This document shows positions 689 through 50,542 of a stretch of DNA of 64,000 bases, piece by piece. The stretch lies in the IMG/VR virus record IMGVR_UViG_3300045988_126062; one strand, given 5' to 3'. Every line of letters begins with the position of its first letter. The stretch's first letter is position 1. Source of the stretch: a virus. Both the position numbers and the translations under genes were made by a program. The notes below the pieces were generated by a model that was not told the DNA's origin, did no database searches, and saw nothing but the letters and a program-made list of their open reading frames with translations.

Positions 689-1864
689 TTATACGGAAAT
701 CCGTACCGGGTTCCACCAAAACCCTCTACCTTTTGGTAACATCGTTACATCAAAGGATTCTTTTTCTGATTTTCTAATGATGTTAAAAGCACCATTGATA
801 TCAGCATTGATGATCTTACCAAACGAGGTTTTAAACAATCCTCGTTTGATTCTTCTTCCTTTGTAAGATTCATGTTTGCAAATCCGTTCATTATCTAAAA
901 AGCTACATTTTGAAGTATAAGATTCTTCAACGATCTTAACATTGATTCCTTCTAATGTAGCTTTATAAGATATCATTGAGATAAACATATTAAAAGGAAT
1001 AGATACAAAGTTCTGATTATTACGTTTTCCGATATTGATCTCTTGTTTCCAGCATTTGTTATGACCGATTATGATCGTATTAATACCATTGGAAACTACA
1101 TGATTAACCAATATCCTACTTGCCTTATGAAGATAATCTTTGATCTTGTTATTCCTTTTGTTGGTTAATGACCTGATTTGTTTTGAAATTTGTTTGTTAT
1201 CTTTTAATTTAGATTTTAAGAATGCTAATCTTTTATTATAATATTGGTTGATAGACTTCAGTGGTCTACCATTGATGATAAAACAAGAGCCATTGTTTGA
1301 AACACAAGAAGCTAAATTATCTAATCCTATGTCGATACCAAGATAGTTTCCATTGTCAGACATAAGATTCTTTTCCTTCTTGTTGTAAACTATTTCAAGA
1401 ACAATATACCCATTCTTAGGAATGAATCTAAGTTGCTGAATATTTTGTTTATTGGTTCTTGTTGTAAAAGAAAACTGTTTTGGTAACTTAACAACACCTT
1501 GTTTTATCCATTTTTGAGAAAAAGATGCAGTCGTAAAAACAGCAGGAAACAAACCACCTTTGTTAAGATACTTAGGCATTCTTACTTCCTCGGAATACTC
1601 ACCTCTGTTCCTTTTATTTAGAAGATTGAAGAAAGATTTGAAGTTTCTATCAACCATCATCAACACTTGTTGAGCAACTGGTGCTGGTAAAGCACGATAG
1701 TCAACATCATTTTCTGCTCTTAGTTTCTTTTCAAGAGAATAGTAGTTAAGATATTTGTATTTTACAGTATTATCATTCTTGTATTGGAAATAGTGTTGTC
1801 TAACAACATACAATCCTTTGTTGTATAAGTTTTTTACACTTATGCAATAGGTCATAAAGTTCAT
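689..1864 (-). CDS. tnpB: TnpB (IS200/IS605-family OrfB RNA-guided nuclease), 391 aa, apparently intact RuvC triad
   Basis: RuvC-I LGIDIGLDNLA, RuvC-II ESYTSKCS, RuvC-III NADINGAFNI; partial zinc finger (SKCS...CKH, second Cys pair missing); typical TnpB length. Confidence 0.85.
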   Translation of the reverse strand: MNFMTYCISVKNLYNKGLYVVRQHYFQYKNDNTVKYKYLNYYSLEKKLRAENDVDYRALPAPVAQQVLMMVDRNFKSFFNLLNKRNRGEYSEEVRMPKYLNKGGLFPAVFTTASFSQKWIKQGVVKLPKQFSFTTRTNKQNIQQLRFIPKNGYIVLEIVYNKKEKNLMSDNGNYLGIDIGLDNLASCVSNNGSCFIINGRPLKSINQYYNKRLAFLKSKLKDNKQISKQIRSLTNKRNNKIKDYLHKASRILVNHVVSNGINTIIIGHNKCWKQEINIGKRNNQNFVSIPFNMFISMISYKATLEGINVKIVEESYTSKCSFLDNERICKHESYKGRRIKRGLFKTSFGKIINADINGAFNIIRKSEKESFDVTMLPKGRGFWWNPVRISV

Positions 1865-4793: not shown

Positions 4794-5267
4794 ATGAAAG
4801 AGGAAGTAGAACGGATAAAGAGGTTGGTTGGCATAGATCATAATAGATGGGAGCAGCCTTGTACATGTGATAAATGCAAGAACATGTGTAAGGTTTCTTG
4901 TATTGGTACACCAAAGGACATGGAAGCTATCATAGATGCAGGATATGCTGACAGGCTAAAAGAGACAATGTGGATGGTGGGGTATCTTGCAGTGAAAGAA
5001 AAACCAATAGCGATGATCCAACCAACAGAGAAAGACGGGTGGTGCGTGTTCCGCCGGCCAGACGGTCTCTGCGAGCTGCATGACCGTGGACTAAAGCCGA
5101 CTGAAGGAGTTCTGGCTTCTTGTAAGGTGGTTGAAGAAGACAATGTCCCAACATATGAAACGTCTGTACTTAGAGCAGTAGCTCATGAGTGGGTTAAGGT
5201 AGAGAACTTCGCAACTATAATGAGGGTCGTTTTTAAATTTTTGCATGAAAATGAACGTAGAAAATAA
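4794..5267 (+). CDS. Hypothetical Cys-rich protein (157 aa)
   Basis: ORF track; CTCDKCKNMCKVSC cluster. Confidence 0.5.
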   Translation: MKEEVERIKRLVGIDHNRWEQPCTCDKCKNMCKVSCIGTPKDMEAIIDAGYADRLKETMWMVGYLAVKEKPIAMIQPTEKDGWCVFRRPDGLCELHDRGLKPTEGVLASCKVVEEDNVPTYETSVLRAVAHEWVKVENFATIMRVVFKFLHENERRK

Positions 5268-6497: not shown

Positions 6498-6843
6498 ATT
6501 GTACAAAGAAATAGAAAAAGCAGAGATTGATCTGAATGCAAAAAGATTAAAGTACATCAAAGAGGCATTAGTGGAGAACGGTGGAAGTATAAAGCTAAAA
6601 TTTAAAAAATGGGGAGAAGATAATAATGCGTTTGACTTTGATGATCAGTTTCCGGTGATAATAGAAATTGCTGGGATTCCTATGTTTTTAACGGAGGTGT
6701 ATGTCAAAAAAAACGGTTTTCGTATGGTTCTGCTGGATTATGATGATATGACTTTAGGTGATTTTGATAATACAGGGGAAAATGAACAGGTTGCTTATTT
6801 TATTAACTATTGTTTAAATCAAGACAAAGATGGGAAAGAGTAG
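6484..6843 (+). CDS. Hypothetical protein (119 aa)
   Basis: ORF track. Confidence 0.5.
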   Translation: MDLNELYKEIEKAEIDLNAKRLKYIKEALVENGGSIKLKFKKWGEDNNAFDFDDQFPVIIEIAGIPMFLTEVYVKKNGFRMVLLDYDDMTLGDFDNTGENEQVAYFINYCLNQDKDGKE

Positions 6844-7018
6844 AAAAGATTATGAGAAGTTTCTTAACTCAATATCTCCAGATAGAGACGATGAGGCATG
6901 GATCATTGGAGGAAAGAACAGGTATTGCGGTAGAGAGAATTATGGCACTATGATCAAAAGGTATGATCCTATTGGTTTTAATGTAGGGTACAGAGAGTGG
7001 GCAGAACAGCCAGAGTAA
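6830..7018 (+). CDS. Hypothetical protein (62 aa)
   Basis: ORF track. Confidence 0.35.
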   Translation: MGKSRKDYEKFLNSISPDRDDEAWIIGGKNRYCGRENYGTMIKRYDPIGFNVGYREWAEQPE

Positions 7019-7111
7019 GGTGGCGCCTGCCCTGCCATGAGGTCGGCCTGGCTGTCTGTGGTCAGGTCCGTACATTAGTCAGATAGTGAACGACGAAAAC
7101 AATACAAATGT

Positions 7112-8603: not shown

Positions 8604-9665
8604 ATGAACAATTCAATGGTCGCTCACTTGTGGGCTCATGAACAAGAAGAATCAGCATCAGGGAGCAATTTCTTCTTTGAAGGTACAAGTATTTATTCTT
8701 ATGGGCATCACTTTGAAGTCGGGAGAATAGTAAAAAACAAACAAGGGAAGAAAGCATACCTGATAAATGAAGATTATTATTCTGCTACCACGGGCAAACA
8801 TCAACGCTATGTTCGTGATGCGATACCAATTTGGGCAATGGTTTTCAGTGTAGGGGATAATATATCGGATACTGGTAATATGAGGTTTGTTGCCAGCAAA
8901 CTGGAATCAATTAAGAAGTCTATTGAAAAATACAAAAGAGCTAAGACAGAATTATCTTATACAGATATTTGGGGCGCTTTTGGGAATATGATGGATTACA
9001 TTCAGTTCTTTAACATGGGAACTGCTAAGAGTATCCTTAAAAAGAGTGCTAATGATTGGCTTGGAACCAATCATGAATTATCCAAGAGCGAAGATAGTAT
9101 CAAGCGTAAGCACGTACATGAATTAAAACGCATCTTTCAAATTTTATTGGATCATCAAGGATTAAAAGTGTTAGGGACCGTAAATGTGATTGTTGATGAA
9201 GTTTGCGGGGAAGGTACATGGATTAAGTATTCAGAAAGATCTGAAAGATGGAGAAAGGGTGAGGAAGAAAGAGAAAGAATAAAATTAGAGAGATTAAGAA
9301 AGGAAGAAGAAGCCCGTTACAAGGATTTTGATGAAAAACTGGAAGAGTGGAAGTCAGGAGAAATCAATTTCTTGAATACACCTTTCTATATTCCTGGTGA
9401 AAAACCTAACGCCTGGATTCGTATAAAAGGAAATATTATTGAGACAAGTAAACAGATAAAGATTGGAATAGCAGAAGCCAGAAAACTGTGGCGGGCTGTG
9501 TCGGCAATGCACCGGGGCGCCGAGTTTCGGCACGGTCTGGTGGAGGACATCACCGGTCGCCAGTGGAGTCTAAATCGGTACGAAAACGATTTGCTAACCG
9601 CTGGATGTCATAGGATAGCATATAACGAAATGGAGAGAATAGCAAAACAACTGGGATGGGTTTAA
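8604..9665 (+). CDS. Hypothetical protein (353 aa) with charged ERxRK coiled-coil-like segment
   Basis: ORF track. Confidence 0.55.
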   Translation: MNNSMVAHLWAHEQEESASGSNFFFEGTSIYSYGHHFEVGRIVKNKQGKKAYLINEDYYSATTGKHQRYVRDAIPIWAMVFSVGDNISDTGNMRFVASKLESIKKSIEKYKRAKTELSYTDIWGAFGNMMDYIQFFNMGTAKSILKKSANDWLGTNHELSKSEDSIKRKHVHELKRIFQILLDHQGLKVLGTVNVIVDEVCGEGTWIKYSERSERWRKGEEERERIKLERLRKEEEARYKDFDEKLEEWKSGEINFLNTPFYIPGEKPNAWIRIKGNIIETSKQIKIGIAEARKLWRAVSAMHRGAEFRHGLVEDITGRQWSLNRYENDLLTAGCHRIAYNEMERIAKQLGWV

Positions 9666-11808: not shown

Positions 11809-12645
11809 ATGAGCACAAGTAAAGAATACAAGTCGGTAAGAAATTGCATACTAAATGAACTTCGCCTTACCAAAGAAGATATAATCAAAAACATAGAATC
11901 ATTATTGGAAAAACTCGTAAAACGGTATATGCATAATACATACGGAGGAAACAATCAGATAGAAAATTGGATCAGATGTATGGTAAATGATGAGCTTAAA
12001 CAAAGGGATTATGGTTTTGTAGAAAGAATAAGCAAGGAAGTCATAAGAGATCATGTGTTGAATGAGTTAAACATAATTGTAAGACCCAAAAATGAAAGAT
12101 GTGTATGTGAAAATAGAGTGCCATCAAGAGAAAATGGTTTGTATTTAATCTATAGAGACGAACACGCTGAGCTGTTCAACAGAGAGAATAGCAAAGAGAA
12201 TGTGCAGTACATCGGGTTAAGACACGAAGACGTATCGTTTGCTATCTCGCTAACGGAGTATGATAGCGTACAATTGCTTGACGATGATAGACGTGAAGAA
12301 CCCGAAAGTGGGACATATTACGAACGTAAATGTGATGCGCTGTTTGACATTGATGGACGCGGCAATACAGAACGCCTTGTAGCCAGAAATCCAAAGTTGA
12401 AAAATCTGCTGAAAGATGGCGAGTATATACCATCTCTTGGTCAATTAAATTTAATGGCCCATTATATGGACGAACTAAACAAAGCATTCGCTTATGTTTC
12501 GGCATCTCCCCTCTCCTCGACGTGGTATAGGTCCAGTACCGAGAGCAGCCCGAGCGTCGCGTGGTACGTGGACTTCTCCATTGGTAGCGCGTACTACAGT
12601 GACAAGTACAACAGTAGCAGGGTTCGGGCGGTAATTGATTTTTAA
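11809..12645 (+). CDS. Hypothetical protein (278 aa); C-terminus encoded by a GC-rich island
   Basis: ORF track. Confidence 0.55.
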   Translation: MSTSKEYKSVRNCILNELRLTKEDIIKNIESLLEKLVKRYMHNTYGGNNQIENWIRCMVNDELKQRDYGFVERISKEVIRDHVLNELNIIVRPKNERCVCENRVPSRENGLYLIYRDEHAELFNRENSKENVQYIGLRHEDVSFAISLTEYDSVQLLDDDRREEPESGTYYERKCDALFDIDGRGNTERLVARNPKLKNLLKDGEYIPSLGQLNLMAHYMDELNKAFAYVSASPLSSTWYRSSTESSPSVAWYVDFSIGSAYYSDKYNSSRVRAVIDF

Positions 12646-12656
12646 AAAGGATTACA

Positions 12657-13463
12657 ATGATAACATCAGTAAAAATAAAAGACAATACAAAAACTCCATT
12701 TGAATATGTTTCGGATATAGAAGCATTTGAAAATGGCAGAGAATTTATTTTCAAGCCAGGAGTGAATGTGATTATAGGGAAAAACGGTAGTGGAAAATCG
12801 ACCTTGCTTAACATAATATCAATGTATGCGTTATGCGAGAAATCCATGTGCTCTGAAATGCCGACCGAGGCACTGGATTTTCCACCTATATTTGATGACG
12901 ATGATAAGGTTTTTGATGGGATTGACATATCATCCGATTATGCAGGGAAAGTATTCCGTTTATTGCCGTCAACGGAGACAAATCGAGATAGTGTATCAAA
13001 AAACATCAGCAATTTCGATTTGTATGTGAATAGCATTCAAAAATCTTATGGAGAAAAAGTGGTGTTATCATTGGAATCACTTTTCAATTTAATGTTCGGT
13101 CAAAAGGATTATACATTTCCAATACAAGATCTTGTAGAATACAAGAAAAAATCAAATGCGTTTTGGATTAAAAGAATTGATAACCTGTTGAAGTATTATA
13201 AAAGAAACCGCATAACATTAACAGAAAGCAGTTTTGAATACACGGTTCTCATGGATGAGCCAGACAGGAATCTTGATATTGACAACATAATGCAGATTTA
13301 CAATGTATTGTCATTTCATAAACCACAAACACAAATTATAGCCATAATACACAATCCGGCATTGATTTACAAATTAAGCAAATTAGATTGTGTTAATTTC
13401 ATAGAGATGACAGAAGGGTATCTAAAGAATGTTGTTAATTTTATAAGCGAAACAAATGAATGA
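12657..13463 (+). CDS. ABC-type ATPase domain protein (SMC/RecF/OLD-like fold), 268 aa
   Basis: Walker A GKNGSGKST, signature-like SYGEKVVLSL, Walker B VLMDEPDRNLD, H-loop IIAIIHNP. Confidence 0.65.
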   Translation: MITSVKIKDNTKTPFEYVSDIEAFENGREFIFKPGVNVIIGKNGSGKSTLLNIISMYALCEKSMCSEMPTEALDFPPIFDDDDKVFDGIDISSDYAGKVFRLLPSTETNRDSVSKNISNFDLYVNSIQKSYGEKVVLSLESLFNLMFGQKDYTFPIQDLVEYKKKSNAFWIKRIDNLLKYYKRNRITLTESSFEYTVLMDEPDRNLDIDNIMQIYNVLSFHKPQTQIIAIIHNPALIYKLSKLDCVNFIEMTEGYLKNVVNFISETNE

Positions 13464-16882: not shown

Positions 16883-17497
16883 TTGGATTTTGGCCTGAAA
16901 ACTTATCTAACTAAAAGCGATGGTAGCAAAATTGATTCTCCACTATTCTTCAAACAATATCAAAACAAGATTAGAAAACTAAACAAACGGATTTCTAATG
17001 CAAAGAAAGGATCCAACAATAGAAGAAGGAGACTGTTTGAACTCCAACAAACGTATCGTAAAATAAACGATCTTCGATCGGATTTTCAATGGGGATTAGC
17101 ACACCAGTTATGCAAACAATATGATTATATTTTTATTGAAGATCTAAACATTGAAGGAATGAAACGTTTGTGGGGAAAGAAGGTTTCCGATCTTAGTCAT
17201 TCTTCTTTTATTGACAAACTTACGTATGTTGCTTCAAAGTATGGAGTGATAGTACACAAGATTGACAAATGGTATCCTTCTTCCAAAACTTGCGAATGTG
17301 GCTGCATTAATAAAGGACTGTCGTTACGCGACCGCACGTGGGTATGCCCGTCGTGCGGAGCGGTAAACGACCGTGATGTTCTTGCAGCCCGTAATATACT
17401 TCGGAAGGGCATTTCCGAATTGGAGAGCAAGAGTAATTCCAGCGATAGCAATATCGGGGTTTCTTGCGTTTGTATCCAAGAATCCCATTTGCTTTAG
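16883..17497 (+). pseudogene. tnpB: 5'-truncated TnpB remnant (RuvC + zinc-finger C-terminal half only, 204 aa; the WED/REC N-terminal half is absent)
   Basis: GLDFGLK (RuvC-I) begins right after an in-frame stop; RuvC-II IEDLNIEGM; zinc finger CECGC...CPSCG; RuvC-III NDRDVLAARNI. Confidence 0.6.
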
Positions 17498-18062: not shown

Positions 18063-18224
18063 TCCAAAAAACAAACAAAATGGAAGAAAAAGAGATAAAA
18101 GAAGCTATGATTGAAGCCCTGACGCACTTAGAGGGGTGTAAGTATTTCGTGGCCACGATAGTAAATAATCGAGAATAATACATAACTCATACAAATCATA
18201 ACCAATTTGTATTGTATTATGCAT

Positions 18225-18463
18225 AATAGCCAAAAGCTATTCCGATTATTAGCCTAAGTGTTGAAACAAACACTACGTTATTTAAGAATAGATAGTTACC
18301 TACGGATATTTACCCAAGTCTGTAGCTCTAAGGTAGGTGATTAAACAGTTCTGGTATTCAGGAACAGTGTTGCTTACGAAAAACCTTAAATAACATTGGC
18401 GATGGGTACTAACAGAGTTTTACTCTGACTTATGTTGAATAAACATTAAAAACGTTTGTAGAT
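18225..18463 (+). ncRNA. IscB omega-RNA, copy A: variable guide-like segment (~18225-18246) plus conserved scaffold starting TATTAGCCTAAG at 18247 and running to the iscB start
   Basis: Directly upstream of an IscB gene; same scaffold found at 30020 and on the minus strand at 49345, with compensatory base changes in two stems. Confidence 0.65.
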
Positions 18464-19690
18464 ATGGTGTACGTACAAGACATAAATGGTAAACCTCTGA
18501 TGCCAACAACGAGGCATGGTAAGGTTAGGAGACTGCTTAAAGATAAAAAGGCAGTCGTTGTGAACCTATGTCCGTTTACCATCCGATTAACGTACGTAAC
18601 ATCTGATTACAAACAGGAAATTGTGTTAGGCGTTGATGCTGGAACTAAGCATGTTGGTTTATCAGCAACGACGAAAAGCAAAGAACTTTACAGCAGTGAA
18701 GTAATTCTTAGAAATGATATCGTAGATCTTTTGTCTACCAGAAGAGAGCTACGAAAAACAAGACGGAATAGATTGAGACATAGAAAACATCGTTTTAACA
18801 ATAGAATAAAAAGTAGGCGTCCCGGATGGACAGCACCTTCGGTGAAATACAAAGTAGACGCCCATATTCGTGTTATTGACAATGTATGTTCTATATTACC
18901 AATATCTCGTATTGTTATCGAAGTAGCTCAATTCGATACTCAAAAGATTAACAATCCTAATATATCAGGTAAAGAATATCAGGAGGGTGATCAACTTGGA
19001 TTTTGGAACGTTAGGGAATATGTTTTAGCAAGAGATGGACATAAATGCCAGCATTGCAAGGGAAAGTCAAAAGACCCAGTATTGAATGTTCATCATATTG
19101 AATCACGAAAGACAGGTGGAGATTCCCCATCTAATCTTATTACCTTATGTGAAACTTGTCATAAAGAATACCATAAAGGTAATATAGATTTAAAAATCAG
19201 AAGAGGCAAGTCGCTTCGCGACGCAGCCGTAATGGGAATAATGAAATGGAGATTGTATGAAGAACTAAAATCTAAATACGACAACATTTCTATGACTTTC
19301 GGTTATGTTACAAAATACAATAGGATTAAACATGGTATTGAAAAATCTCATGTTTTCGATGCATTTGTTATTTCTAAAAACTTTGATGCTATAAGGTTAG
19401 GATATTATTATAAAGTAAGATTAGTAAGAAGACATAATCGTCAGATCCATAAACAAAAGATTCCAAAAGGAGGAATCAAGAGGTTAAATCAATCTCCATT
19501 TGAAGTTTTTGGTTTCCGTTTGTTTGATAGGGTTATGTTTGAAAACAGTTATTACTTTATATTTGCAAGGCGTAAAACCGGTAGTTTTAATATTCGAGAT
19601 ATTGATGGTAAAAACCAAAGAGATATTACATACAAGAAATTGAAATTATCAAGGTGTAAACGCTTTATGGTACAAAAGGAAATGGATTGA
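18464..19690 (+). CDS. iscB: IscB RNA-guided nuclease (PLMP, RuvC-I, Arg-rich bridge helix, RuvC-II, HNH, RuvC-III), 408 aa
   Basis: PLMP motif; RuvC-I LGVDAGTKHVG; bridge helix RRELRKTRRNRLRHRKHRFNNR; RuvC-II IVIEVAQFD; HNH HKCQHCKG...NVHHIESRKTGGDSPSNLITLCETCHKEYH; RuvC-III HVFDAFVIS. Confidence 0.85.
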   Translation: MVYVQDINGKPLMPTTRHGKVRRLLKDKKAVVVNLCPFTIRLTYVTSDYKQEIVLGVDAGTKHVGLSATTKSKELYSSEVILRNDIVDLLSTRRELRKTRRNRLRHRKHRFNNRIKSRRPGWTAPSVKYKVDAHIRVIDNVCSILPISRIVIEVAQFDTQKINNPNISGKEYQEGDQLGFWNVREYVLARDGHKCQHCKGKSKDPVLNVHHIESRKTGGDSPSNLITLCETCHKEYHKGNIDLKIRRGKSLRDAAVMGIMKWRLYEELKSKYDNISMTFGYVTKYNRIKHGIEKSHVFDAFVISKNFDAIRLGYYYKVRLVRRHNRQIHKQKIPKGGIKRLNQSPFEVFGFRLFDRVMFENSYYFIFARRKTGSFNIRDIDGKNQRDITYKKLKLSRCKRFMVQKEMD

Positions 19691-20413: not shown

Positions 20414-20886
20414 TGATAAGAAGTCATGGCTTATGCCAGGCTTGCAGGAGCAAAGAGTTGACTCCGAAGAAAAAAAACAGAATTACATCCATTAAAAACA
20501 GCAGCAAGAAGAAAAAGTTAGAGAACCCGGATTTATCCGGGTTTTTTCGTCTTATGTTGGAGGAGTTAAATAGTATTCGGATGTCTATGACTGGTAGGGC
20601 TATTCATCTTCCTACAGTATGTAACGTATGTCACATACTTCCGAAAAGGATATATAAGTCGGTTGCTACTTGCAGGGATAATATAGTTTTCCTTCATGAA
20701 TCGGAGCATACGGTATTCGACATGTATCTTGACCGGATGGAATTTGATAAACTTGAAACAGAATTTCCTTTTGTATGGAAGTATGCGGTAAAGAAGGTAC
20801 TGGATATGGAAAGCAGGGGAATGATTAAAGAAAGAGGTAGGTTGATTATTGAAATAATTGACAGGTATGATAGAAGAAAAGATTAA
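20359..20886 (+). CDS. Hypothetical zinc-ribbon protein (175 aa)
   Basis: CERCGRK...CQAC motif pair; overlaps the previous ORF in another frame. Confidence 0.45.
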   Translation: MESKEKKLYVCERCGRKVMIRSHGLCQACRSKELTPKKKNRITSIKNSSKKKKLENPDLSGFFRLMLEELNSIRMSMTGRAIHLPTVCNVCHILPKRIYKSVATCRDNIVFLHESEHTVFDMYLDRMEFDKLETEFPFVWKYAVKKVLDMESRGMIKERGRLIIEIIDRYDRRKD

Positions 20887-22186
20887 AATATTAACAGATT
20901 TAGGGTTTGTCCCTATGGTGGAAGGAGTAGAAAATACGTTGTTTAGAATGAACGATGTTGTGATGTCGGTGTCAGATCCTAATCAAACACCGGAGCAATT
21001 GAGAAAGGAAGTTATGTCTTTAATAAAAAACAAAGACATAGCAGAAAGAGGCGGACAGGTTCCAGTAGTTAAAGAGCCGGCGCCTGAGCCAGAGCAGGCC
21101 CAGGGAGAAGAACCGGAAGCTCCGGCAGAGGAAGCAGATCCTAACCCTGGAGAGGAAGATTCGAATCCGTTTACAGAAAATCAAGAAACGTTAGAGCCGT
21201 TTTATATCTGCGATGAGTTGAAGAAGATTGAGACTCCCAAATTCGTAAGATTGACATTAGACGATAATCGTTTTTATGTAAGGAAGATGGATGATGGAAC
21301 GGCCAAGATATATGCTTCGGTAACAACTTTAATCAAAGATGGGTATGTAGATGATAAGACCGCACTTCAGGAATGGAAGCAAGAGATGAAGATGCTTGGT
21401 CGCAATCCGGAAGAGGTGGCACAGTATGAAGCCGACAGGGGAACGATCATGCACTACTTATACGGATTGTACCTAACAGGTAGAGATATGGTCTTAAATC
21501 GAAGCTTTGTAGTTAAGACAGTGCAAGAAGGCAAGCTGAAAATATCTAAGAAAAATCTTGATCGGTTTTTTAACAGTATTGATGATCTTGATGATATGAT
21601 TGTCAGAATTATGAAGTTTGCCAAATTTTGTTCAGAGTATAAGGTTAAGCCGATGATGATTGAAAGAATATTGTCATTAGAAGACTATTTAGTAGCTACG
21701 CCGATAGATGCGATGGTTAAAATGACATTCAAATACAAAGAAGAAGGTTATTTTGGAGCCGTGTATCAAAGGGCTACAGGGCAGTTTAAAAAAGGTGATC
21801 CGAAGAAGGAGGTAAGAGACGTGGAGAAGGAAGAAGTGGTTATTCTCGACTTTAAATCAGGGGGAATATGGGAATCATACGCATTTCAATTAGAAGCTGA
21901 AAGAAGAATGGTTAAAGCATGGTATGGGATTGATGCACGTATTATGAACTTTTCTCCAAAAAGCACGAGCAGCAAAGGATATACGTTGAAAGAATGGACA
22001 GAAGACAGTATAGCACTTGAAAAGGCGGACTGCGTGTTCCAACAAGGTATGTTGAATCACCTTAGAAAAGATAAGAAGTTTAAAGTGAGAAAAGGAGTGT
22101 TGAATATCAATAAGCCGTACAATGAAGAAGATCATACGGTTGTATATGATATTGCAGAGGAAATGTCTAAAAGATTCATGATATAA
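20858..22186 (+). CDS. Putative PD-(D/E)xK nuclease (RecB-like core) with acidic low-complexity N-terminal region, 442 aa
   Basis: GTIMHYLYG, ATPIDAMV (motif II Asp), VVILDFKSGG (D-x-K motif III), Q...Y downstream; weak. Confidence 0.45.
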   Translation: MTGMIEEKIKILTDLGFVPMVEGVENTLFRMNDVVMSVSDPNQTPEQLRKEVMSLIKNKDIAERGGQVPVVKEPAPEPEQAQGEEPEAPAEEADPNPGEEDSNPFTENQETLEPFYICDELKKIETPKFVRLTLDDNRFYVRKMDDGTAKIYASVTTLIKDGYVDDKTALQEWKQEMKMLGRNPEEVAQYEADRGTIMHYLYGLYLTGRDMVLNRSFVVKTVQEGKLKISKKNLDRFFNSIDDLDDMIVRIMKFAKFCSEYKVKPMMIERILSLEDYLVATPIDAMVKMTFKYKEEGYFGAVYQRATGQFKKGDPKKEVRDVEKEEVVILDFKSGGIWESYAFQLEAERRMVKAWYGIDARIMNFSPKSTSSKGYTLKEWTEDSIALEKADCVFQQGMLNHLRKDKKFKVRKGVLNINKPYNEEDHTVVYDIAEEMSKRFMI

Positions 22187-22208: not shown

Positions 22209-23222
22209 ATGCTTGATTTTAGAAAATACGAAAACGTACCTCGGTTTCAACTTGACCGCAGGCCTGGCAGGAGCCGACTGAAGCTAACCTGCCCGGCTTG
22301 CGGGAAAAGCCGGTGCCTTACCCCTTATATTGATGTGGCGACCGGTCAGGTCGTTGGCAATGAGTTTGGAAGATGCGATCATGAACGAACTTGCGGTTAT
22401 GATAAACGACCTACCGGCAAGGATGTAGGTGACAAAGATCTTTGGATTTCGGGAAATAAGTGCATAAGAGCTTATCGTCCTCCTGTAAATCCTGACGTTG
22501 TAAATTACATACCTTTTAGCGAGTTTGAGAGGACTGTGGTTCCAGACGATAGAAACACCGTATTTAGATTTTTATCGTCTCTATGGGGAAAAGAAAGGGT
22601 ATCTGATGTGTTCAGAAGGTATCATGTCGGAACAATGGACTTATGGGGATGGAAAGGGTGTTGTATATTCTGGCAGATAGATAAGGACTTTGTATGCAGA
22701 ACCGGCAAGATCATGGACTTTTATATAAAGACCGACAGCCAGGGGAATGAGATTGATGTAAAAAGAGTGAAGGAAAAAGACGGTGACAATGAGCGGCCTC
22801 ATGTTATGTTTTATCATTCGTTGCATGCAAGGGACTTCTTGTTTAGACAATGCCTGTTCGGAGAGCATCTTCTAAGCCAGTATCCGGATAAGGTGGTTAA
22901 TCTGGTGGAATCAGAAAAGACGGCTATTATATGCGCCGTGAATAAACCGGATGAGTTATTTGTAGCTACCGGTGGGTTGCAGAATCTAAGGCCGGAAGTG
23001 ATAGATGTTTTAAAAGATAGAAAGACTGTAGCTTTTCCGGACAAAGGACAAGCATTTGAGATATGGAGTAAAAAGATAGATGGGATGATGATGAAGTCAA
23101 GGATAAAAGTATCGGACTATCTTCAAAATGTTGAAAATGTAGGAGACGGAGATGATGTGGCAGATTTGATAATTAGTAACAAGGTAAAGGAAAAATATCA
23201 TGAGCCTGGATGTTTATATTAA
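22209..23222 (+). CDS. Putative DNA primase (N-terminal Cys/His zinc-binding region + TOPRIM-like region), 337 aa
   Basis: CPACGKS...CDHERTC zinc motif; VESEKTAIICAV and VAFPDKGQAFE resemble TOPRIM Glu and Asp motifs; lies next to the helicase gene. Confidence 0.45.
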   Translation: MLDFRKYENVPRFQLDRRPGRSRLKLTCPACGKSRCLTPYIDVATGQVVGNEFGRCDHERTCGYDKRPTGKDVGDKDLWISGNKCIRAYRPPVNPDVVNYIPFSEFERTVVPDDRNTVFRFLSSLWGKERVSDVFRRYHVGTMDLWGWKGCCIFWQIDKDFVCRTGKIMDFYIKTDSQGNEIDVKRVKEKDGDNERPHVMFYHSLHARDFLFRQCLFGEHLLSQYPDKVVNLVESEKTAIICAVNKPDELFVATGGLQNLRPEVIDVLKDRKTVAFPDKGQAFEIWSKKIDGMMMKSRIKVSDYLQNVENVGDGDDVADLIISNKVKEKYHEPGCLY

Positions 23223-24396: not shown

Positions 24397-24675
24397 ATGG
24401 GCAGATCAACAGAGTACTACAGGACTCATCCCGAAGCCAGGAAGAAAAAGGCTAAAAAGGACAAGGAGATAAATGCCAGACCGGAACAGAAAGCCAAACG
24501 CCGAGAGCTTGGTCGTAAAAACTACGAAACGGACAAGAAGAAGGGTAAGGGCTGGAGAAAAGGAAAGGATTGTTCTCATACCAAGAACGGTCTTAGGTAT
24601 AAATCAGTAAAAGCTAATAGGGGATCCAAATCGGATACGAAAGGTGACAAAAATGCAAGAGGATCTGAAAAATAA
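24397..24675 (+). CDS. Highly basic K/R-rich small protein (92 aa), possibly DNA-binding
   Basis: About 35% Lys+Arg composition. Confidence 0.4.
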   Translation: MGRSTEYYRTHPEARKKKAKKDKEINARPEQKAKRRELGRKNYETDKKKGKGWRKGKDCSHTKNGLRYKSVKANRGSKSDTKGDKNARGSEK

Positions 24676-25777
24676 AATAGATATAAGAAGGATATTCAAA
24701 ACCTCTAAACAGGTTATGGAAGAGGCGTATGAGAATATCTTGAAATACAGGCGGGGAGAGCTTATCCCCGCTAAAACCGGATACGATTATATTGATGAGG
24801 CTTTGCTTGGAGGTATTTTTCCTCAGCACGCTATTGCCATAGGAGCCCGGCCATCTGTAGGTAAATCGTATGTGGCCCAAAAGATATTGGAAAATGTGAT
24901 GAATCCGATGATCAACCCGCAAGCAGAAGATTATTTTCTTGTTAATTGCGAGTTCGAAATGAATCCTCAAGATCTTCTTCTTCGCAGAATGAGCCAGGAT
25001 ATGAAAAAGCGGGCTCCTGAAATATTAAGAAGGCAAGATTCTAATACAGTAGAAGAGATGAGGATGTTTGAAATCCTTCAAGGTGAAATCAGAAATAATA
25101 TAATATACATCGATGCTCCGTGTACGGTAAAAGAGTTTGAGGCGGCTGTGTATCATATAGCTACCAAACATAAAGACAAACGTCTTATAATATTTAAAGT
25201 CGATCATATTGCTTTGATAAAAAGAATGGGATTAGATCCTAAGTCGGCTATAGATGATTTGGTGGCGGTTATGAACGAAGCTAAATTAGTATATAAAAAC
25301 ATATTTTTCCTCATCATATCCCAATTCAACAGAGAAATAGAAGGAAGGATAAAAAGCCCACAAGAGCAGCCTCCGCGTCTTTCTGATTTTTACCAGTCTG
25401 ATACGCTGGGTCAGTTATGTACGTTAATGATAGGCTTGCACAATCCTCGTAGGTACGGGCTGGATAAGTATATGATATTTGGGAAAGATTGGTATCAGAC
25501 TCTTGATAGGTTTAAAACTGAAAACAAAACATCATTCAGGACAGCCGGACTGGTGTTTCATCATATACTGAAGGTAAGGCAAGTTAGTATGGAAGAGCTT
25601 ACTAATACAATCCACCCAGAGATACTGCCGGGACATGGATGGATGTACGGGGAGGGCGGGACGAAGTTCGTGAACCCCAACCAGCCGCCGACGCCGCCCA
25701 AGCTCTATACTGTGGAAGACGTTACGAACAATCAAGATCAAGAACAAGAGACAAAGGAAGAACAGTCATTGTATTAA
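24644..25777 (+). CDS. DnaB-family replicative helicase (RecA-like C-terminal domain; only a short N-terminal region), 377 aa
   Basis: H1 Walker A GARPSVGKS, H1a CEFEMNPQDLLLRR, H2 LIIFKVDHIALIKRM, H3 ISQFNREIEGR, H4 PRLSDFYQSDTLGQ. Confidence 0.8.
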   Translation: MTKMQEDLKNKIDIRRIFKTSKQVMEEAYENILKYRRGELIPAKTGYDYIDEALLGGIFPQHAIAIGARPSVGKSYVAQKILENVMNPMINPQAEDYFLVNCEFEMNPQDLLLRRMSQDMKKRAPEILRRQDSNTVEEMRMFEILQGEIRNNIIYIDAPCTVKEFEAAVYHIATKHKDKRLIIFKVDHIALIKRMGLDPKSAIDDLVAVMNEAKLVYKNIFFLIISQFNREIEGRIKSPQEQPPRLSDFYQSDTLGQLCTLMIGLHNPRRYGLDKYMIFGKDWYQTLDRFKTENKTSFRTAGLVFHHILKVRQVSMEELTNTIHPEILPGHGWMYGEGGTKFVNPNQPPTPPKLYTVEDVTNNQDQEQETKEEQSLY

Positions 25778-28090: not shown

Positions 28091-29791
28091 ATGACAACAA
28101 TTATGTACGTGTCAGCCATCTTAGCTGTAGTGATTATTTTGACAATCATCGGAGTCTTATCAAGGTATCGTAGATGTAAGCCTAATCAGGTCTTGGTCGT
28201 TTATGGTAAGACAGGTGGAGAGAAGAAATCGGCGAAATTATATCATGGTGGAGCAGCATTCGTGTTGCCTATTATCCAAAGCTATGATATTTTATCTATG
28301 GAGCCTATGCAAATAGATTGTAGGCTTACCGGTGCTTTGTCATCTCAGAATATTAGAGTAGATGTGCCTACAACTATTACAGTAGCTATCAGTACAAATC
28401 CTGAAATCATGCAAAATGCAGCAGAAAGACTTTTGGGGATGGATACCGAATCTACTGAAAATCTTATTACAGACATCGTTTACGGTCAGATGCGTTTGAT
28501 TATTGCCGAAATGACAATCGAAAAACTTAATTCTGATAGGGATGAGTTTTTGGATAAGGCAAGAAAAAACATTGATAACGAACTTAATAAATTGGGTCTT
28601 TATCTTTTGAACATTAACATCAGTGACATCAGAGATGAAGCCGGCTACATCATGAATCTTGGTAAAGAGGCTGAAAGCAAGGCTCTGAACGAAGCACAGG
28701 CTAATATCGAAGAACAGGAAAAGCTGGGTGCTATTAAGATTGCTGTACAACAGAAGGAAAAAGAAACGGCTGTAGCTAATACCCAAAAAGAGCAAGAGAT
28801 TCAAATTGCCTATACTGAAAAAGAAAAAGAAACGGTAGTAGCTGAAACAAAGAAAGAAAAAGAAGTAGCTTTGGCTTTAACCGATAAAGAAAAACAGATC
28901 GGTGTAGCTCAAGCCGATAGAGATAGGGCTGCGGCTATAGCAAAGACTTTGGCTGACAAGGGATCAGCGATTGCAAGATCTAAGGCGGAACTTGAAGTAA
29001 ACAAAGCTGAAGCCGAAAGAATGGAAGAAGTTGGAAAGAATAAAGCTGAAGCTGACAAACAAGCAGCTATAGCAATACAAGACTCTGAAGCTCAGATTAA
29101 GAAAGCTGAGGCTGAGAAAAATGCTTCTGTAGGCTACAACAATGCCCAGAAAGAGGTTGCTGTATCAGAATCAGAATTGCAGGTTATCAAAGCTCAATCA
29201 GAAAAGAAAGCCGGAGAAGAGAAAGTTAAATCGGAAGCGGCTGTGAAAACGGCAAAAGAGCTTGCTGATAAAGAAGTGGAAGAAGCTAAAGCTAAGAAGG
29301 TTCAAGCTGCGCTTAAAGCTGAAAAGATTGTGCCGGCTGAAATTCAGAAGCAGGAGGCTATGTTGCAAGCTGATGCCGAGGCCGAGAAGATCAAACGCCG
29401 GGCCGATGCTGAAGCAGCAGCACATTTGGCAAAAGCAGAGGCGGAAGCAAAAGCTATTCAGATGAAGCTGGAAGCGGAAGCCGAAGGTAAGAAAAAGTCG
29501 TTGATGGCAGAAGCCGACGGATTTAAGGCTATGGTGGAAGCAGCAGAATCCAATCCTCAGATCGCCATCCAGTACAAGATGGTTAATCAGTGGAAAGAAA
29601 TTGCTGGAGAACAGGTTAAGGCGTTCGAGCACATCAATCTCGGAAATATCACGGTATTTGACGGCGGTCAGAACAGCACCGGTAATTTCCTTAACAATGT
29701 TGTTAAGGCCGTTGCTCCGGCATTGGGAGTCATTGATCAGCTTCCGATTGCAGATACTTTAAAGAAGTTAAAAGGAGATGACAAAAAATAA
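28091..29791 (+). CDS. SPFH/band-7 flotillin-like protein (N-terminal TM, SPFH domain, long EA/KE-repeat coiled coil), 566 aa
   Basis: YGQMRLIIAEMTIEKLNSDRDEF SPFH core; AEAEAKA-type repeats. Confidence 0.75.
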   Translation: MTTIMYVSAILAVVIILTIIGVLSRYRRCKPNQVLVVYGKTGGEKKSAKLYHGGAAFVLPIIQSYDILSMEPMQIDCRLTGALSSQNIRVDVPTTITVAISTNPEIMQNAAERLLGMDTESTENLITDIVYGQMRLIIAEMTIEKLNSDRDEFLDKARKNIDNELNKLGLYLLNINISDIRDEAGYIMNLGKEAESKALNEAQANIEEQEKLGAIKIAVQQKEKETAVANTQKEQEIQIAYTEKEKETVVAETKKEKEVALALTDKEKQIGVAQADRDRAAAIAKTLADKGSAIARSKAELEVNKAEAERMEEVGKNKAEADKQAAIAIQDSEAQIKKAEAEKNASVGYNNAQKEVAVSESELQVIKAQSEKKAGEEKVKSEAAVKTAKELADKEVEEAKAKKVQAALKAEKIVPAEIQKQEAMLQADAEAEKIKRRADAEAAAHLAKAEAEAKAIQMKLEAEAEGKKKSLMAEADGFKAMVEAAESNPQIAIQYKMVNQWKEIAGEQVKAFEHINLGNITVFDGGQNSTGNFLNNVVKAVAPALGVIDQLPIADTLKKLKGDDKK

Positions 29792-29830: not shown

Positions 29831-29999
29831 AGCAAAAGCAGCATTTATAGATTTCCTGCCGGCAGGGACAGTGCTTTACTAATTATAATATTTTTAACAT
29901 GGATTTTGGACAAGATTTAGAACCAGAAGAACTGACCGGGCATTATGATCGGTGTTATAACCCCAAATAGTATTAACCCAATATAATTCTATTATAAAA

Positions 30000-30268
30000 G
30001 TTTAATACATCTCTTTCAGAGATCGGGTTATTAGCCTAAGCCTTGAAACAGAGGCTACGTTATTTGAGAATAAATAGTTACCAAGGAATGTTTATCCAAG
30101 TTTCTTGCTCTAAGGATGGTGATTAAACAGGAGTAGTGTATTTGACGAAACAGTGTTGCCATTATATAAAACCTCTTATAACATTGGCGATGGGTACTTA
30201 CAGGAGAAATCATGACTTATCCCTAACGGGATTTACATCTACCAAGGAGACCGGAAGGTCTCCGAGGG
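30000..30268 (+). ncRNA. Orphan omega-RNA-like scaffold, copy B (no adjacent IscB): distinct 5' guide-like sequence, scaffold from 30020, 3' end replaced by GGAGACC-ggaa-GGTCTCC hairpin (30246-30263)
   Basis: Aligns with copies A and C over ~170 nt; stems retained through compensatory changes (GTGTT/AACAC vs GCCT/AGGC; CTAC/GTAG vs CAAG/CTTG). Confidence 0.6.
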
Positions 30269-30320
30269 GATGTATTAAAACATATGAATAGCTTTAAATA
30301 TATTTAATAGAATATGAGAT

Positions 30321-30668
30321 ATGGAATTGATTTTGAAACAGAAGAAGAGGAGGATGAAGAGTATGACTGATGAGGAATTTGCATTAGATAATAAGAAAAA
30401 GGTTGTTGTAAGAAAAAGAATATCCTATTTAAACAAAGGGGATAAAGTGTGGATCGTGTCTTCCGACGGGTATCTGCTACACACGGACGTGGTTAGAGCC
30501 GACCGAGGCCGATCTTATGTGGATATAGACGGGATACTGTATTGGAAACGTGGATTGGATGGCAAACATCGTAATCGTAACAACTACATGCAGTTCGCCA
30601 TGACACCAGAAGATGGTAAGAAGTATGTCGTATATTACCCGGAAGGATTTAAAGACGATAGCTTATGA
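30321..30668 (+). CDS. Hypothetical protein (115 aa)
   Basis: ORF track. Confidence 0.45.
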   Translation: MELILKQKKRRMKSMTDEEFALDNKKKVVVRKRISYLNKGDKVWIVSSDGYLLHTDVVRADRGRSYVDIDGILYWKRGLDGKHRNRNNYMQFAMTPEDGKKYVVYYPEGFKDDSL

Positions 30669-31684
30669 TGGTCCCGGAAACGCATTTGCTATATAAGGAG
30701 TTTAATGGTGTGAAACGTCTTGCCATATCTTATTCCCAGATAGATACGTTTCTTACTTGTCCAATGAAATGGTATAAGACTTATGTGGAAGGTAAAAGGT
30801 CTACAGAAAAACAAGAAGCTACGTCTTATGGTACGGTTATTCATAAGACACTGGAATACTTCTTCAAGAACGGAAGACAGCCTTCTGGCAAAGACCTGGG
30901 GGAAGCTATAAGTTACTATGCTTACCAAGAAGACATACCTTGGCAATCACCGGAAAATATGATGATAGCCATGAAACAATCTGGAGAACTTCTTGCTTGG
31001 ATTGTGGATCTGTTTAAAAAAGACGGGAATAGGTTTATGATAGCTGATAGTGATCTTAATCCCTGTGAAAAACTTATCAGACACGGCGCTATAGTTGGAG
31101 TCGAAGAAGATTTTGTGCTGCCGTATCGTCTTCCTAAGCCTGTTGATATAAATGGTGACGTTCATACACATGTGTACATAGTAGGATCGGTAGACCTTCA
31201 TCTGGCTATAAAAAGCAAGAACGTAGTTCACCATTATGTCATAGATTGGAAATCAGGAAATAAGGTTTTTGATTCTAAGAAATTGGAAACGAATTTACAG
31301 CATCCTATATATTCATTTTACATCTATAGAAAATATGGTGGAGTTCTACCAGATATGAACATCTATTTCTTTACCAGAACCAGACAATACCAAAAGGTTA
31401 AGGTGGATGAGGAACGTAAGACAAAATCTATAGAGATGCTAAATGACACTTTGTCTAAAATGTATGATTTTGAAGATAATAGTGTAAAATCATTTCAAGC
31501 GTACATCCAGGGAGCAGAAGGAGCCAGGTATAGCAAGCGGCGTGCCACCCTAAGCCAGCCTGTTCCGCAAAACAAGCTACCCTGCCCGTCAGCACTGTGT
31601 TACTATTGTGACTTTGGATTACATAACAAAAACGAATGCCCTTTCTCTTCGGATTGGGATCCGTCTAAAAAGATAAAACGATGA
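30665..31684 (+). CDS. Cas4/RecB-family PD-(D/E)xK exonuclease with Fe-S-type cysteines (one N-terminal, cluster at C-terminus), 339 aa
   Basis: ISYSQIDTFLTCPMKWY, GTVIHKTLE, GSVDLHL, VIDWKSG (D-x-K), QHPIYSFY (QxxxY), CPSALCYYC...C. Confidence 0.7.
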   Translation: MMVPETHLLYKEFNGVKRLAISYSQIDTFLTCPMKWYKTYVEGKRSTEKQEATSYGTVIHKTLEYFFKNGRQPSGKDLGEAISYYAYQEDIPWQSPENMMIAMKQSGELLAWIVDLFKKDGNRFMIADSDLNPCEKLIRHGAIVGVEEDFVLPYRLPKPVDINGDVHTHVYIVGSVDLHLAIKSKNVVHHYVIDWKSGNKVFDSKKLETNLQHPIYSFYIYRKYGGVLPDMNIYFFTRTRQYQKVKVDEERKTKSIEMLNDTLSKMYDFEDNSVKSFQAYIQGAEGARYSKRRATLSQPVPQNKLPCPSALCYYCDFGLHNKNECPFSSDWDPSKKIKR

Positions 31685-32183: not shown

Positions 32184-32561
32184 ATGAAAAAAGAAGTCAC
32201 AATCAAGGAAGATATGGCTGTGTTTTATAAAAATACAGGAAAAGAACTATGGATTTATAACGGACTTTTCAGAAACAAGGTGTTGTCTATAAAAAAAGAT
32301 AAAGCCATTATCATGTGTGAAACTGATGCTGAATATGCTGTACTGATAGAAGATAATCAGTTTATTGCCGTAGCAAAAAACATGGATTATGATTACTGCT
32401 GCGCATTCACATTAGGTAATGCCGAGGCTTATGGGGATCGTATGGGCATATCGTGCAGTGTATGCTTGCTTGAAGATAACGAAGATAAAGCAAGGGAGAT
32501 GTTGAAAGAGGCGATAATAGAACTTTCAAAAAACAGTAAAATAGATTGCGATGGGCTTTGA
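32184..32561 (+). CDS. Hypothetical protein (125 aa)
   Basis: ORF track. Confidence 0.45.
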   Translation: MKKEVTIKEDMAVFYKNTGKELWIYNGLFRNKVLSIKKDKAIIMCETDAEYAVLIEDNQFIAVAKNMDYDYCCAFTLGNAEAYGDRMGISCSVCLLEDNEDKAREMLKEAIIELSKNSKIDCDGL

Positions 32562-35505: not shown

Positions 35506-36063
35506 ATGGAAAAGATGGATGATAATACTAAAAATATCCTTTATCCAAAAGGATCTATTTTTCGCATATTAAAAGATGATATAATCAGTGCCGAATTTAA
35601 AATCGTCAAAGGAGCTATAGCGGAGGCAGTATCAGACATAGAAGTAAATGATAAATATGCTGAGGTTTGTTGCAATGGGGAGACGTTCGTCATAGAAACG
35701 GATATTATGGATATTATTCTTACCAAAGACCCCATAGAAAACAAATCGGTGAAAAATGACATCATTGATGATAAACTACGATGGGATTTGCTTCCAATGG
35801 AAGAGATTGAGGATATTGTAAGAGTCTATCATGCTGGTGCAAAGAAGTACGGACCCAATAAATGGCAGAACCTTGACAACGGGTTTGAACGGTATCGTGC
35901 TGCGGCTGCCAGACACCTAATGGAATACATGAAAGGGGAAAGAGTGGATTCCGATACAGGATGTTTTCATCTTGCACAATGTGCATGGAACTGTATAGCT
36001 ATGCTGTGGTATGATAAGCATGGAAAAGGGTTGATACCATTAAACAAGGAGGAAAAGAAATGA
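35506..36063 (+). CDS. Hypothetical protein (185 aa); C-terminal all-alpha region with an EExxE-like motif, faintly MazG-like
   Basis: MEEIEDIVRVYHAGAKKYG...ERYRAAAARHLMEY; weak. Confidence 0.45.
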   Translation: MEKMDDNTKNILYPKGSIFRILKDDIISAEFKIVKGAIAEAVSDIEVNDKYAEVCCNGETFVIETDIMDIILTKDPIENKSVKNDIIDDKLRWDLLPMEEIEDIVRVYHAGAKKYGPNKWQNLDNGFERYRAAAARHLMEYMKGERVDSDTGCFHLAQCAWNCIAMLWYDKHGKGLIPLNKEEKK

Positions 36064-36378: not shown

Positions 36379-36909
36379 ATGATTAGAGCAAGATTTTACA
36401 TTAAAAAATCCGACTGCGACAACGACTACCGTCCAGTCAAATGGCCTATAAAATATCCATATTGGTGTAGTGCAGAATCCGATAATTCATTTGTATTGGT
36501 AGCGTATGCTGAAGATGAAGACAGCATAAAAGAACTGTGGCCGGAGGCGTATGATATTAATGTCTTAGAGAAAGATACCGAAATTAGATTCACATTAAGA
36601 TTCCCTAAGCCGGAATGGTATGAATTGTACGAAAGGGAATTAGAAGAATGTGATAGATTTATATGGGTTACGGATGCGTGCCTGAGAAACGGTATAATAA
36701 GAAAAGTAAAAGCTAAAATAGAAGAGTATGGTGGTCTTTTGTTAGCCGACATCCCTGATAGGTTCACTCCTTATGAAATAGGAATGGATGCTTTTGAGAG
36801 CAAAGAAGAAGCTTTAAAACATGCAGAGGAACGGAGAGCGCACCTGATCGAATTTATTAAGAAAAAATTGAATGAACTTGAAAATCTAAAATTTGAATGC
36901 GATGATTAA
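36379..36909 (+). CDS. Hypothetical protein (176 aa)
   Basis: ORF track. Confidence 0.5.
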   Translation: MIRARFYIKKSDCDNDYRPVKWPIKYPYWCSAESDNSFVLVAYAEDEDSIKELWPEAYDINVLEKDTEIRFTLRFPKPEWYELYERELEECDRFIWVTDACLRNGIIRKVKAKIEEYGGLLLADIPDRFTPYEIGMDAFESKEEALKHAEERRAHLIEFIKKKLNELENLKFECDD

Positions 36910-49368: not shown

Positions 49369-49460
49369 AAACCTTATAATGAAATTATATTGTTTTAATG
49401 TTATTTCGGATATGAAAACAAATTCGCCACCGTATCTTTTATTAGCCAATTCTTCTACAG

Positions 49461-50449: not shown

Positions 50450-50542
50450 CTTCTTTACCGCCTCATCAGCGAGAGCATTAGAAAAATGGTAGCCGTAAGT
50501 ATCTACATATTTCTGATAAGCTGGATCCTCTGCGTCTGCTCC

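Follow-up and report, generated by a model that had tools for sequence, protein, structure and literature searches.

Why should the genes of an AT-rich phage be interrupted, without loss of reading frame, by short stretches of GC-rich sequence? The question is raised by IMG/VR virus record IMGVR_UViG_3300045988_126062, of which we analysed a stretch of 64,000 nt (the window; 37.5% GC, with plus-strand genes to ~38.5 kb and minus-strand genes after), and in particular by a patch at 9461-9579 (the focal patch) in the open reading frame (ORF) 8604-9665. The phage crAssE-Sib (OR575929.1; 151 kb; human gut) is ~94% identical to the window, with values of 92-97% over 67-88% of the window's length, and IMG/VR holds hundreds of further relatives. 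Judged from its sequence, the window comes from the genome of an epsilon crAss-like phage. crAssE-Sib is itself described as an epsilon crAss-like phage of the proposed genus Epsilonunovirus (PMC11054128); the genome descriptions of this group that we consulted, that one included, make no mention of GC content or codon heterogeneity. We conclude that the genome very probably carries discrete segments of 60-150 bp, about one per 2 kb, held at 55-70% GC within genes of 37% GC. The shift is at the nucleotide level, is limited to this phage lineage, persists in position in the genus while the bases turn over, and is mirrored in present synonymous polymorphism. For its cause, selection for composition-defined stable segments is our leading reading, to which we give a probability of roughly 0.4.

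Local GC in the window varies beyond sampling noise. In 60-bp windows its standard deviation is 0.081, against a binomial value of 0.0625, and the upper tail is heavy: 895 windows reach a GC of at least 0.60 and merge into 28 segments of 60-150 bp at 55-70% GC. An earlier note on this DNA had listed 16 such intervals, claiming that they exceed the normal GC variance of the genome, leave reading frames intact and cannot be put down to Gly/Ala/Pro/Arg content alone. All three claims hold. Each of the 16 intervals lies within one intact ORF, with GC of 0.53-0.70, GC at third codon positions (GC3) of 0.49-0.82 (background 0.36), a Gly/Ala/Arg/Pro fraction of 0.22-0.58 (background 0.20) and an amino-acid-expected GC of 0.40-0.63 (background 0.384); the z-score of GC3 given the amino acids (z below) is at least 3 in 12 of them. 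The list itself stood only in part. It missed about 12 further segments, such as those starting at 21040, 29345, 30449, 40829, 50523, 50780, 53061, 61529 and 63639 and the intergenic ones at 459, 2089 and 6982, and it lumped into one phenomenon a variable region (12478-12640), the 3' end of a tnpB gene (17330-17395) and low-complexity linkers (56870-56950).

Peptide composition and synonymous choice both contribute to the patches, because amino-acid-expected GC (0.52; background 0.384) and GC3 (0.67; background 0.36) are both raised in 20-codon windows with a GC of at least 0.6. Amino acids make up slightly more than half of the GC excess and synonymous choice the remainder. That nothing more than Gly/Ala/Pro/Arg-rich peptides and chance is at work is hardly credible: the amino-acid-expected GC is indeed high in patches, and a few of them are essentially linkers, but extreme windows become 8-fold fewer when synonymous codons are resampled with genome-wide usage. 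Counting 20-codon windows above threshold, we observed 247 against 31.6 (maximum 60) in the resampled sets with a z-based threshold, and 344 against 62 (maximum 103) with a cut-off of 0.60. The z-score is one-sided, exceeding +3.3 in 1.2% of windows and falling below -3.3 in none, and its profile has 25 separate peaks in the window, with values of up to 6. In two 20-codon windows GC3 is 1.00, namely at 25646-25705 (the tail of a DnaB-like helicase) and 32971-33030 (motif III of a superfamily 2 (SF2) helicase). The latter belongs to patch 32947-33054, which covers motif III as had been claimed. On the coding strand, A and T are both depleted in patches. The same count gave observed/null ratios of 1.4 in T4 (50 kb) and 0.7 in crAss001 (44 kb); the effect is therefore not a general property of AT-rich phages.

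Apart from the variable region, the TnpB 3' end and the extragenic elements described below, the patches are ordinary collinear protein-coding segments in which all three codon positions are GC-shifted. The focal patch is among them. Some hold catalytic motifs, and their synonymous shift is strong: amino acids lean to codons of the Gly/Ala/Arg/Pro type as far as the protein allows, and nearly all synonymous sites are G/C-ending. The GC3 excess is flat where GC at the first two codon positions (GC12) is below 0.55 and steps up by +0.06 to +0.21 above it in three epsilon datasets, a step that T4, crAss001 and unrelated phages lack.

The patches are a stable trait of the lineage. For nearly all of them, 13-85 relatives have a patch in the same place with a GC of 0.5-0.65, and a GC of ~0.6 is maintained in alleles that have diverged by 10-30%. 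The whole crAssE-Sib genome has ~72 patches in 151 kb. A distant epsilon lineage, whose replication proteins are 38-45% identical to those of the window, has 6.4-8.5 patches per 10 kb, most of which sit elsewhere in the homologous genes (profile correlation ~0.2). The only patch sites common to both are the DnaB P-loop region and the primase zinc ribbon, which is GC-rich (0.56-0.60) in distant lineage D1 too. Unrelated phages that have the focal gene only show 0-0.6 patches per 10 kb.

We then turned to polymorphism at synonymous third positions, with ~240 relatives piled up on the window. Outside patches, changes from G or C (S) to A or T (W) number 0.43 per S site and the reverse changes 0.19 per W site, from which an equilibrium GC3 of 0.30-0.31 follows (observed, 0.33). 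In core patches the corresponding densities are 0.33 and 0.29-0.33, for an equilibrium of 0.47-0.50. The contrast is significant (P values of 1e-4 to 5e-8; Fisher P 4e-5 to 5e-8), and a bootstrap over patches excludes the background values. It is robust to dropping the two polymorphic patches, to keeping only rows that are locally at least 93% identical, and to defining patches by the consensus without the window. These data show a persistent local bias favouring G/C, without telling selection from biased conversion or from a local mutation spectrum; they argue against a pure amino-acid effect and against neutral decay of imported high-GC DNA.

Import was one of the explanations proposed in the earlier note, as conversion tracts from a GC-richer relative, and the relatives speak against it. 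Sharp boundaries and a codon usage like that of a high-GC genome would fit tracts brought in by conversion or transfer from GC-richer homologues, and at two patches GC-rich and AT-rich alleles do coexist and recombine (see below), the GC-rich haplotype of one of them, 47763, being linked to an IscB insertion. However, patches are present in essentially all of the ~240 relatives and nearly all are fixed, their GC is kept while the sequence diverges, and a decay spectrum is absent, since S-to-W changes per site are lower in patches rather than equal or higher. No donor was found among the matches in the phage collection, and ~72 tracts per genome would be needed. We hence regard import as very improbable.

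The two polymorphic patches show how alleles differ. The focal patch encodes LWRAVSAMHRGAEFRHGLVEDITGRQW and has a GC of 0.60-0.70 (peak 0.70), a GC3 of 0.73-0.85 and z 4.1-4.7. Its counterpart in crAssE-Sib is AT-richer (GC 0.445) and only 55% identical, against 79% in the flanks, with both synonymous and replacement differences toward G/C in the window (from crAssE-Sib to window: CTT>CTG, AGA>CGG, CAT>CAC, GAT>GAC, AAT>CGG, AAG>TCG). Among 170 loci, the alleles form a series from type A (the window; GC 0.64-0.66) through B (0.54-0.58) to C (0.35-0.47), the last being also the type of more distant phages. Types A and B differ at ~30% of sites, yet both are GC-rich. Some alleles are recombinant, with junctions within the patch. 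Extra conservation of the focal patch was considered and rejected: alleles of 84% identity carry an identical patch, but this is not conservation specific to it, because they are mosaics with a breakpoint near 9170. At 47763-47852, two haplotype families have GC of 0.56-0.63 and 0.42-0.46. The peptide CAAIWVQD is the same in both, and 7 of 7 synonymous differences are G/C-ending in the window. The GC-rich family is found in 12 of 12 relatives carrying the neighbouring IscB insertion and in 15 of 40 without it (Fisher 1e-4); the restriction of IscB (47905-49143) to this haplotype could reflect linkage or a flank converted together with the element. Both patches are codon-for-codon collinear with their AT-rich alleles, with unchanged length. 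To judge from these alignments, recombination does replace alleles at 9461 and 47763.

What then could hold segments GC-rich while their bases change? A local fixation bias favouring G/C would act on the DNA itself. We propose that it stems from selection for "GC clamps": stretches of DNA or transcript, set at intervals along the genome, that are GC-rich and thermodynamically stable and would be written into genes by recoding. Composition would then count, rather than a specific motif or fold, and the clamps may limit duplex opening or serve replication, packaging or transcript stability. The earlier note had listed selected recoding among its explanations, and the GC-shifted synonymous polymorphism is consistent with it. 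Spacing points the same way: in the window its coefficient of variation (CV) is 0.51 against 0.88±0.15 for random placement (P=0.0008), and no gap between patches exceeds 4.8 kb, whereas the median of the largest gap under random placement is 7.9 kb (P=0.004). An independent 83 kb of crAssE-Sib gave a CV of 0.69 with P=0.04 (and P=0.02), a weak replication. A stronger version, that epsilon crAss-like phages need evenly spaced clamps of ~100 bp per 2 kb as composition-defined DNA elements whose positions drift while density is conserved, we consider unlikely. Such clamps would help to replicate, package or protect an AT-rich genome or would serve its topology, and they would be recoded into synonymous sites and tolerant amino acids because 93% of the genome is coding.

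Gene conversion biased toward GC at short hot spots of recombination, in which heteroduplex repair at fixed places would favour G/C at synonymous and non-synonymous sites alike, is possible though somewhat unlikely. The population is extremely mosaic: a comparison of window positions 1-21000 with 80 genomes (loci L086-L165) found 216 distinct identity-breakpoint clusters in 21 kb, and single-gene alleles of 55-80% identity circulate among genomes that are otherwise ~93% identical. The W-to-S bias expected under conversion is seen, with synonymous polymorphism in patches GC-shifted without a clear frequency skew. Amino-acid changes in the focal patch are also toward GC codons, patch positions turn over between deep lineages, and recombinant haplotypes occur within the patches at 9461 and 47763. 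However, breakpoints, which the earlier note had suggested might coincide with patches, are not enriched there: local GC is at least 0.5 at 4.6% of the 216 clusters against 3.8% of background positions, in a test that resolves just those tracts long enough for the identity hidden Markov model. Sites of indels and mobile elements are not enriched either (5 of 29 at patches, against a background of 12%), no determinant of a hot spot was found, and conversion does not predict even spacing. We prefer selection over biased conversion because patches are evenly spaced and not associated with breakpoints, and because their density is conserved while their positions shift.

A neutral alternative invokes context-dependent mutation: under the replication and repair system of this lineage, GC-rich DNA seeded by Gly/Ala/Arg/Pro peptides would lose fewer G/C and gain more, and so reinforce itself. 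It fits the confinement of the GC3 excess to GC12 of at least 0.55, as well as polymorphism whose densities differ while its frequencies do not. It accounts poorly for the helicase motif III patch, where GC3 is 1.0 at an amino-acid-expected GC of just 0.41-0.46, and for the focal patch, where the amino acids themselves have moved toward GC codons. The response of GC3 is step-like instead of graded, and even spacing is left unexplained. This explanation is thus quite unlikely.

It is decidedly unlikely that the patches embed conserved RNA or single-stranded DNA structures, as also suggested in the earlier note, or form clusters of rare codons at which translation would pause. The genome uses GC-ending codons rarely, and patches 17304 and 22234 do fold unusually well. 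Consensus folding of the focal patch also yields a hairpin at 9477-9541, while the same procedure yields none in its upstream control region; this hairpin is weak, with 19 pairs, 93% paired and 5 compensatory, drawn from ~3 independent lineages and from the alignment that also defined the structure, and its single-sequence folding z is -1.3 to +0.7. As a general cause structure fails, for patches fold no better than composition-matched shuffles: the mean folding z is -0.40 on the sense and -0.26 on the antisense strand, against -0.63 in controls, with only patches 17304 and 22234 standing out; the focal hairpin scores -0.8. The patches contain no tRNA genes or Rfam families (the three HEARO RNAs found lie elsewhere), and no intrinsic terminator coincides with them save a single weak one within the 3' end of TnpB. 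Pausing, for its part, could do without G/C enrichment at codon positions 1 and 2.

Other candidates were tried and rejected. All-versus-all BLAST of the patches found no repeat family (best E 0.015 over 22 nt) and no common sequence, and there is no convincing common motif. A C-rich composition of the Rho-utilisation type is contradicted by a skew whose sign differs from patch to patch. An intein homing site behind the helicase patch does not fit, the intein of homologues being at residue ~35, ~300 bp upstream of the patch. Position within genes shows no preference, and a bias to 3' ends is unsupported (Kolmogorov-Smirnov p=0.89).

Several observations weigh against selection for composition. 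Patch identity among relatives is comparable to that of the flanks, with no extra conservation. Minor-allele frequencies and spectra are nearly equal inside and outside patches; the contrast lies in the densities alone, so that biased conversion or a mutation spectrum that differs locally fits just as well. The signal of even spacing is strong in the window only; it is borderline in the remainder of crAssE-Sib, and 20-kb pieces of the distant lineage lack it. The 8-mer CCGGCGCC is enriched (5 observed, 0.17 expected), though partly from Pro-Ala and Gly-Ala peptides and in three different frames. Some patches are largely driven by amino acids, as at 56840 and 49501 (the latter because its z is just 1.3). 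Any function of the patches is putative and unproven.

Known systems offer partial parallels. Biased gene conversion makes GC peaks at recombination hot spots in eukaryotes and has been proposed for bacteria; to our knowledge such peaks are not established for phages. The patches resemble them in their G/C enrichment at synonymous and non-synonymous sites, excess of W-to-S changes and turnover of positions between lineages, and differ in being ~100 bp long, evenly spaced and without detectable association with breakpoints. Yeast mitochondrial GC clusters and Rickettsia palindromic elements are repeated, mobile, GC-rich or palindromic in-frame inserts. Like them, the patches are short GC-rich stretches that keep the frame in genes of an AT-rich genome; unlike them, they share no sequence, do not change length relative to AT-rich alleles, and are no more palindromic than composition gives. 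Rare-codon clusters occur in coding sequences, and the patches are likewise runs of 20-30 codons that are rare in the genome, but codon positions 1 and 2 are also GC-shifted and the effect is absent in other AT-rich phages. If a composition-only element were selected inside genes, the proteins of an abundant gut phage lineage would be partly shaped by a requirement at the DNA level, and the patches would offer a concrete example, open to testing, of how selection or biased conversion acts on local GC in a virus. The patches also yield spurious antisense ORFs (that at 12242-12928, pointed out earlier, is present and has no Pfam match) and local codon-usage anomalies, which can mislead gene callers, detectors of horizontal transfer and codon-based host prediction.

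The segments are the following. In the linker-type patches at 21040, 50523, 50780, 56840 and 63639, amino acids account for most of the GC.

459-561, no strand: GC-rich element, largely outside confident genes, by the 3' end of a full-length TnpB gene (689-1864, minus strand)
2089-2157, no strand: GC-rich element with a tRNA-like T-arm, overlapped solely by a doubtful ORF of 52 amino acids (aa)
5008-5116, plus strand: ORF 4794-5267, over the Cys-rich motif GWCVFRRPDGLCELHDRGLKP; GC 0.65, GC3 0.71-0.75, z 3.5-3.8; GC 0.58-0.64 in 51 relatives, at identities down to 81%
6982-7084, no strand: GC-rich element, mostly intergenic, the first 37 bp overlapping small ORF 6830-7018
9461-9579, plus strand: focal patch, near the C-terminus of ORF 8604-9665 (353 aa; phrog_7247, function not assigned)
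12478-12640, plus strand: variable region of diversity-generating retroelement (DGR) type, C-terminus of the Lcl_C-like protein 11809-12645
17304-17394, plus strand: TnpB 3' end, zinc-finger/TNB region of truncated TnpB ORF 16883-17497 (Pfam OrfB_IS605 and Cas12f1-like TNB)
21040-21158, plus strand: low-complexity Pro/Glu/Ala-rich linker in ORF 20858-22186, peptide EPAPEPEQAQGEEPEAPAEEADPNPGEE, including CCGGCGCC
22234-22353, plus strand: zinc ribbon of primase-like ORF 22209-23222 (Pfam Zn_ribbon_16 and DUF6371); z 3.1-3.7, folding z -3.7
25607-25729, plus strand: C-terminal tail of DnaB-like helicase ORF 24644-25777; GC3 1.00 over 20 codons, z 6.1
29345-29431, plus strand: flotillin-like ORF 28091-29791, Ala/Glu-rich coiled coil
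30449-30522, plus strand: ORF 30321-30668; z 3.5; GC 0.51-0.65 across 77 relatives
31496-31600, plus strand: close to the C-terminus of PD-(D/E)XK nuclease ORF 30665-31684
32947-33054, plus strand: motif III (LGFTATP) of SF2 helicase ORF 32551-33972; GC3 1.00 over 20 codons, z 5.8
33568-33627, plus strand: second patch of the same helicase, GRCVRIHPDKK region; GC3 0.75-0.80, z 3.8-4.2
37193-37340, plus strand: ORF 36893-37615; GC 0.61-0.70, z 4.4-5.1
40829-40936, minus strand: structural ORF 40201-46623 (2140 aa)
41498-41558, minus strand: same 2140-aa ORF
44876-44999, minus strand: same 2140-aa ORF; GC 0.70-0.73, z 3.9-4.5
47763-47852, minus strand: N-terminus of ORF 47562-47867, beside the IscB insertion
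49501-49629, minus strand: most of small ORF 49461-49688, upstream of a HEARO RNA; GC 0.59
50523-50618, minus strand: Arg/Gly-rich low-complexity patch, ORF 50543-50911
50780-50863, minus strand: Arg/Gly-rich low-complexity patch, same ORF
53061-53120, minus strand: ORF 52411-54669
56840-56970, minus strand: Pro/Ala-rich linker in the 2214-aa ORF 55228-61872; Gly/Ala/Arg/Pro 0.58, amino-acid-expected GC 0.63, z 1.7
57663-57770, minus strand: same 2214-aa ORF; z 4.4-4.6
59690-59808, minus strand: same 2214-aa ORF; z 3.7-4.3
61529-61630, minus strand: same 2214-aa ORF
63639-63749, minus strand: Gly/Pro/Ala-rich patch near the N-terminus of ORF 61865-63940

The segment at 12478-12640 stands apart: by its substitution pattern, it is a DGR variable region. 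Across ~40 alleles, changes are limited to codon positions 1 and 2, with a constant C at the third, and the flanks are ~91% identical. A search of viral contigs with the pattern of invariant positions returned two, each with two copies 731 bp apart. In contig L390 (1-3494), a variable region at the end of an Lcl_C-domain gene is followed by an accessory ORF and by a template repeat that lies at, and overlaps, the 5' end of an RVT_1 reverse-transcriptase ORF. The differences between its own variable region and template all fall at template adenines, as do the mismatches of 12478-12640 with this template, save one C>T. The Lcl_C match of the window protein (Pfam, E=1.2e-4) is under the curated cut-off, which the L390 target passes. 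No matching template repeat is present in the window or in all of crAssE-Sib, whose annotated DGR has a template unrelated to the variable region of the window. A region lacking its cognate template in a close relative and matching the template of a complete DGR in another contig points to diversification in trans, from one replicon to another, or to a module that was imported more than once. The segment resembles DGR variable regions in its NNC-type hypervariability and template-adenine mismatches, as well as in a probable Lcl_C-type C-terminus, and differs in that template and reverse transcriptase lie outside the window and crAssE-Sib. The likeness is limited to this segment, as the other patches are not hypervariable.

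Segment 17304-17394 is the only strongly structured patch (folding z = -5.1; GC3 z just 1.8) and probably overlaps an omega-RNA. The elements at 459-561 and 2089-2157 lie on either side of the full-length TnpB (391 aa), which is flanked by a 28-nt inverted pair, 89% complementary (643-670/1963-1990), and is missing at the same place in crAssE-Sib. The first element lies 128 bp past the TnpB stop, outside the inverted pair, and is not unusually structured; the one at 6982-7084 is not present at the same place in crAssE-Sib. None of the three extragenic elements is overlapped by more than a small doubtful ORF. All three have the common motif …ATAGAGGGGGAGTAGGCGGCGCC…, and one terminates in the tRNA-like T-arm GGTTCGATTCTGG. 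ARAGORN and Rfam gave no match for them; they may be small RNAs. The window also has two complete IscB elements, at 18198-19690 (plus strand) and 47905-49413 (minus strand); in each, a HEARO/omega-RNA precedes an RRXRR+HNH protein (408 or 412 aa). A solo HEARO RNA at 29957-30201 (plus strand), with no nuclease gene, lies within a 362-bp stretch (29958-30320) that 42 relatives lack.

A few minor observations concern the genome at large. At the extreme start of the window, positions 1-153 hold a 51-bp unit three times in tandem, at 73-84% identity to the first copy. Most database homologues of the SF2 helicase have 817 aa, their P-loop being interrupted at residue ~35 (~32655) by a Hint/homing-endonuclease intein of 344 aa; the alleles of the window and crAssE-Sib lack the intein, and their junction differs slightly (PCAAGKS against PC-intein-SGKS). 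CTGCAG is absent from the window, against a rough estimate of ~8 expected, and CGCG and CCGCGG are under-represented; CCGG (191 against ~100) and GCCGGC (22 against ~5) are in excess. A cytosine-5 methyltransferase gene, missing from the window, is present in crAssE-Sib and other relatives, where 1.1-1.3-kb insertions are seen at ~36369 and ~36906. Window positions 35506-36063 and the crAssE-Sib annotation show that the proteins of the lineage include one like a dATP/dGTP diphosphohydrolase (dGTP_diPhyd_N in relatives), one like Ro60, a poly(A)/CCA-adding enzyme and also a polynucleotide kinase. Together, these proteins hint at base modification and RNA-repair functions.

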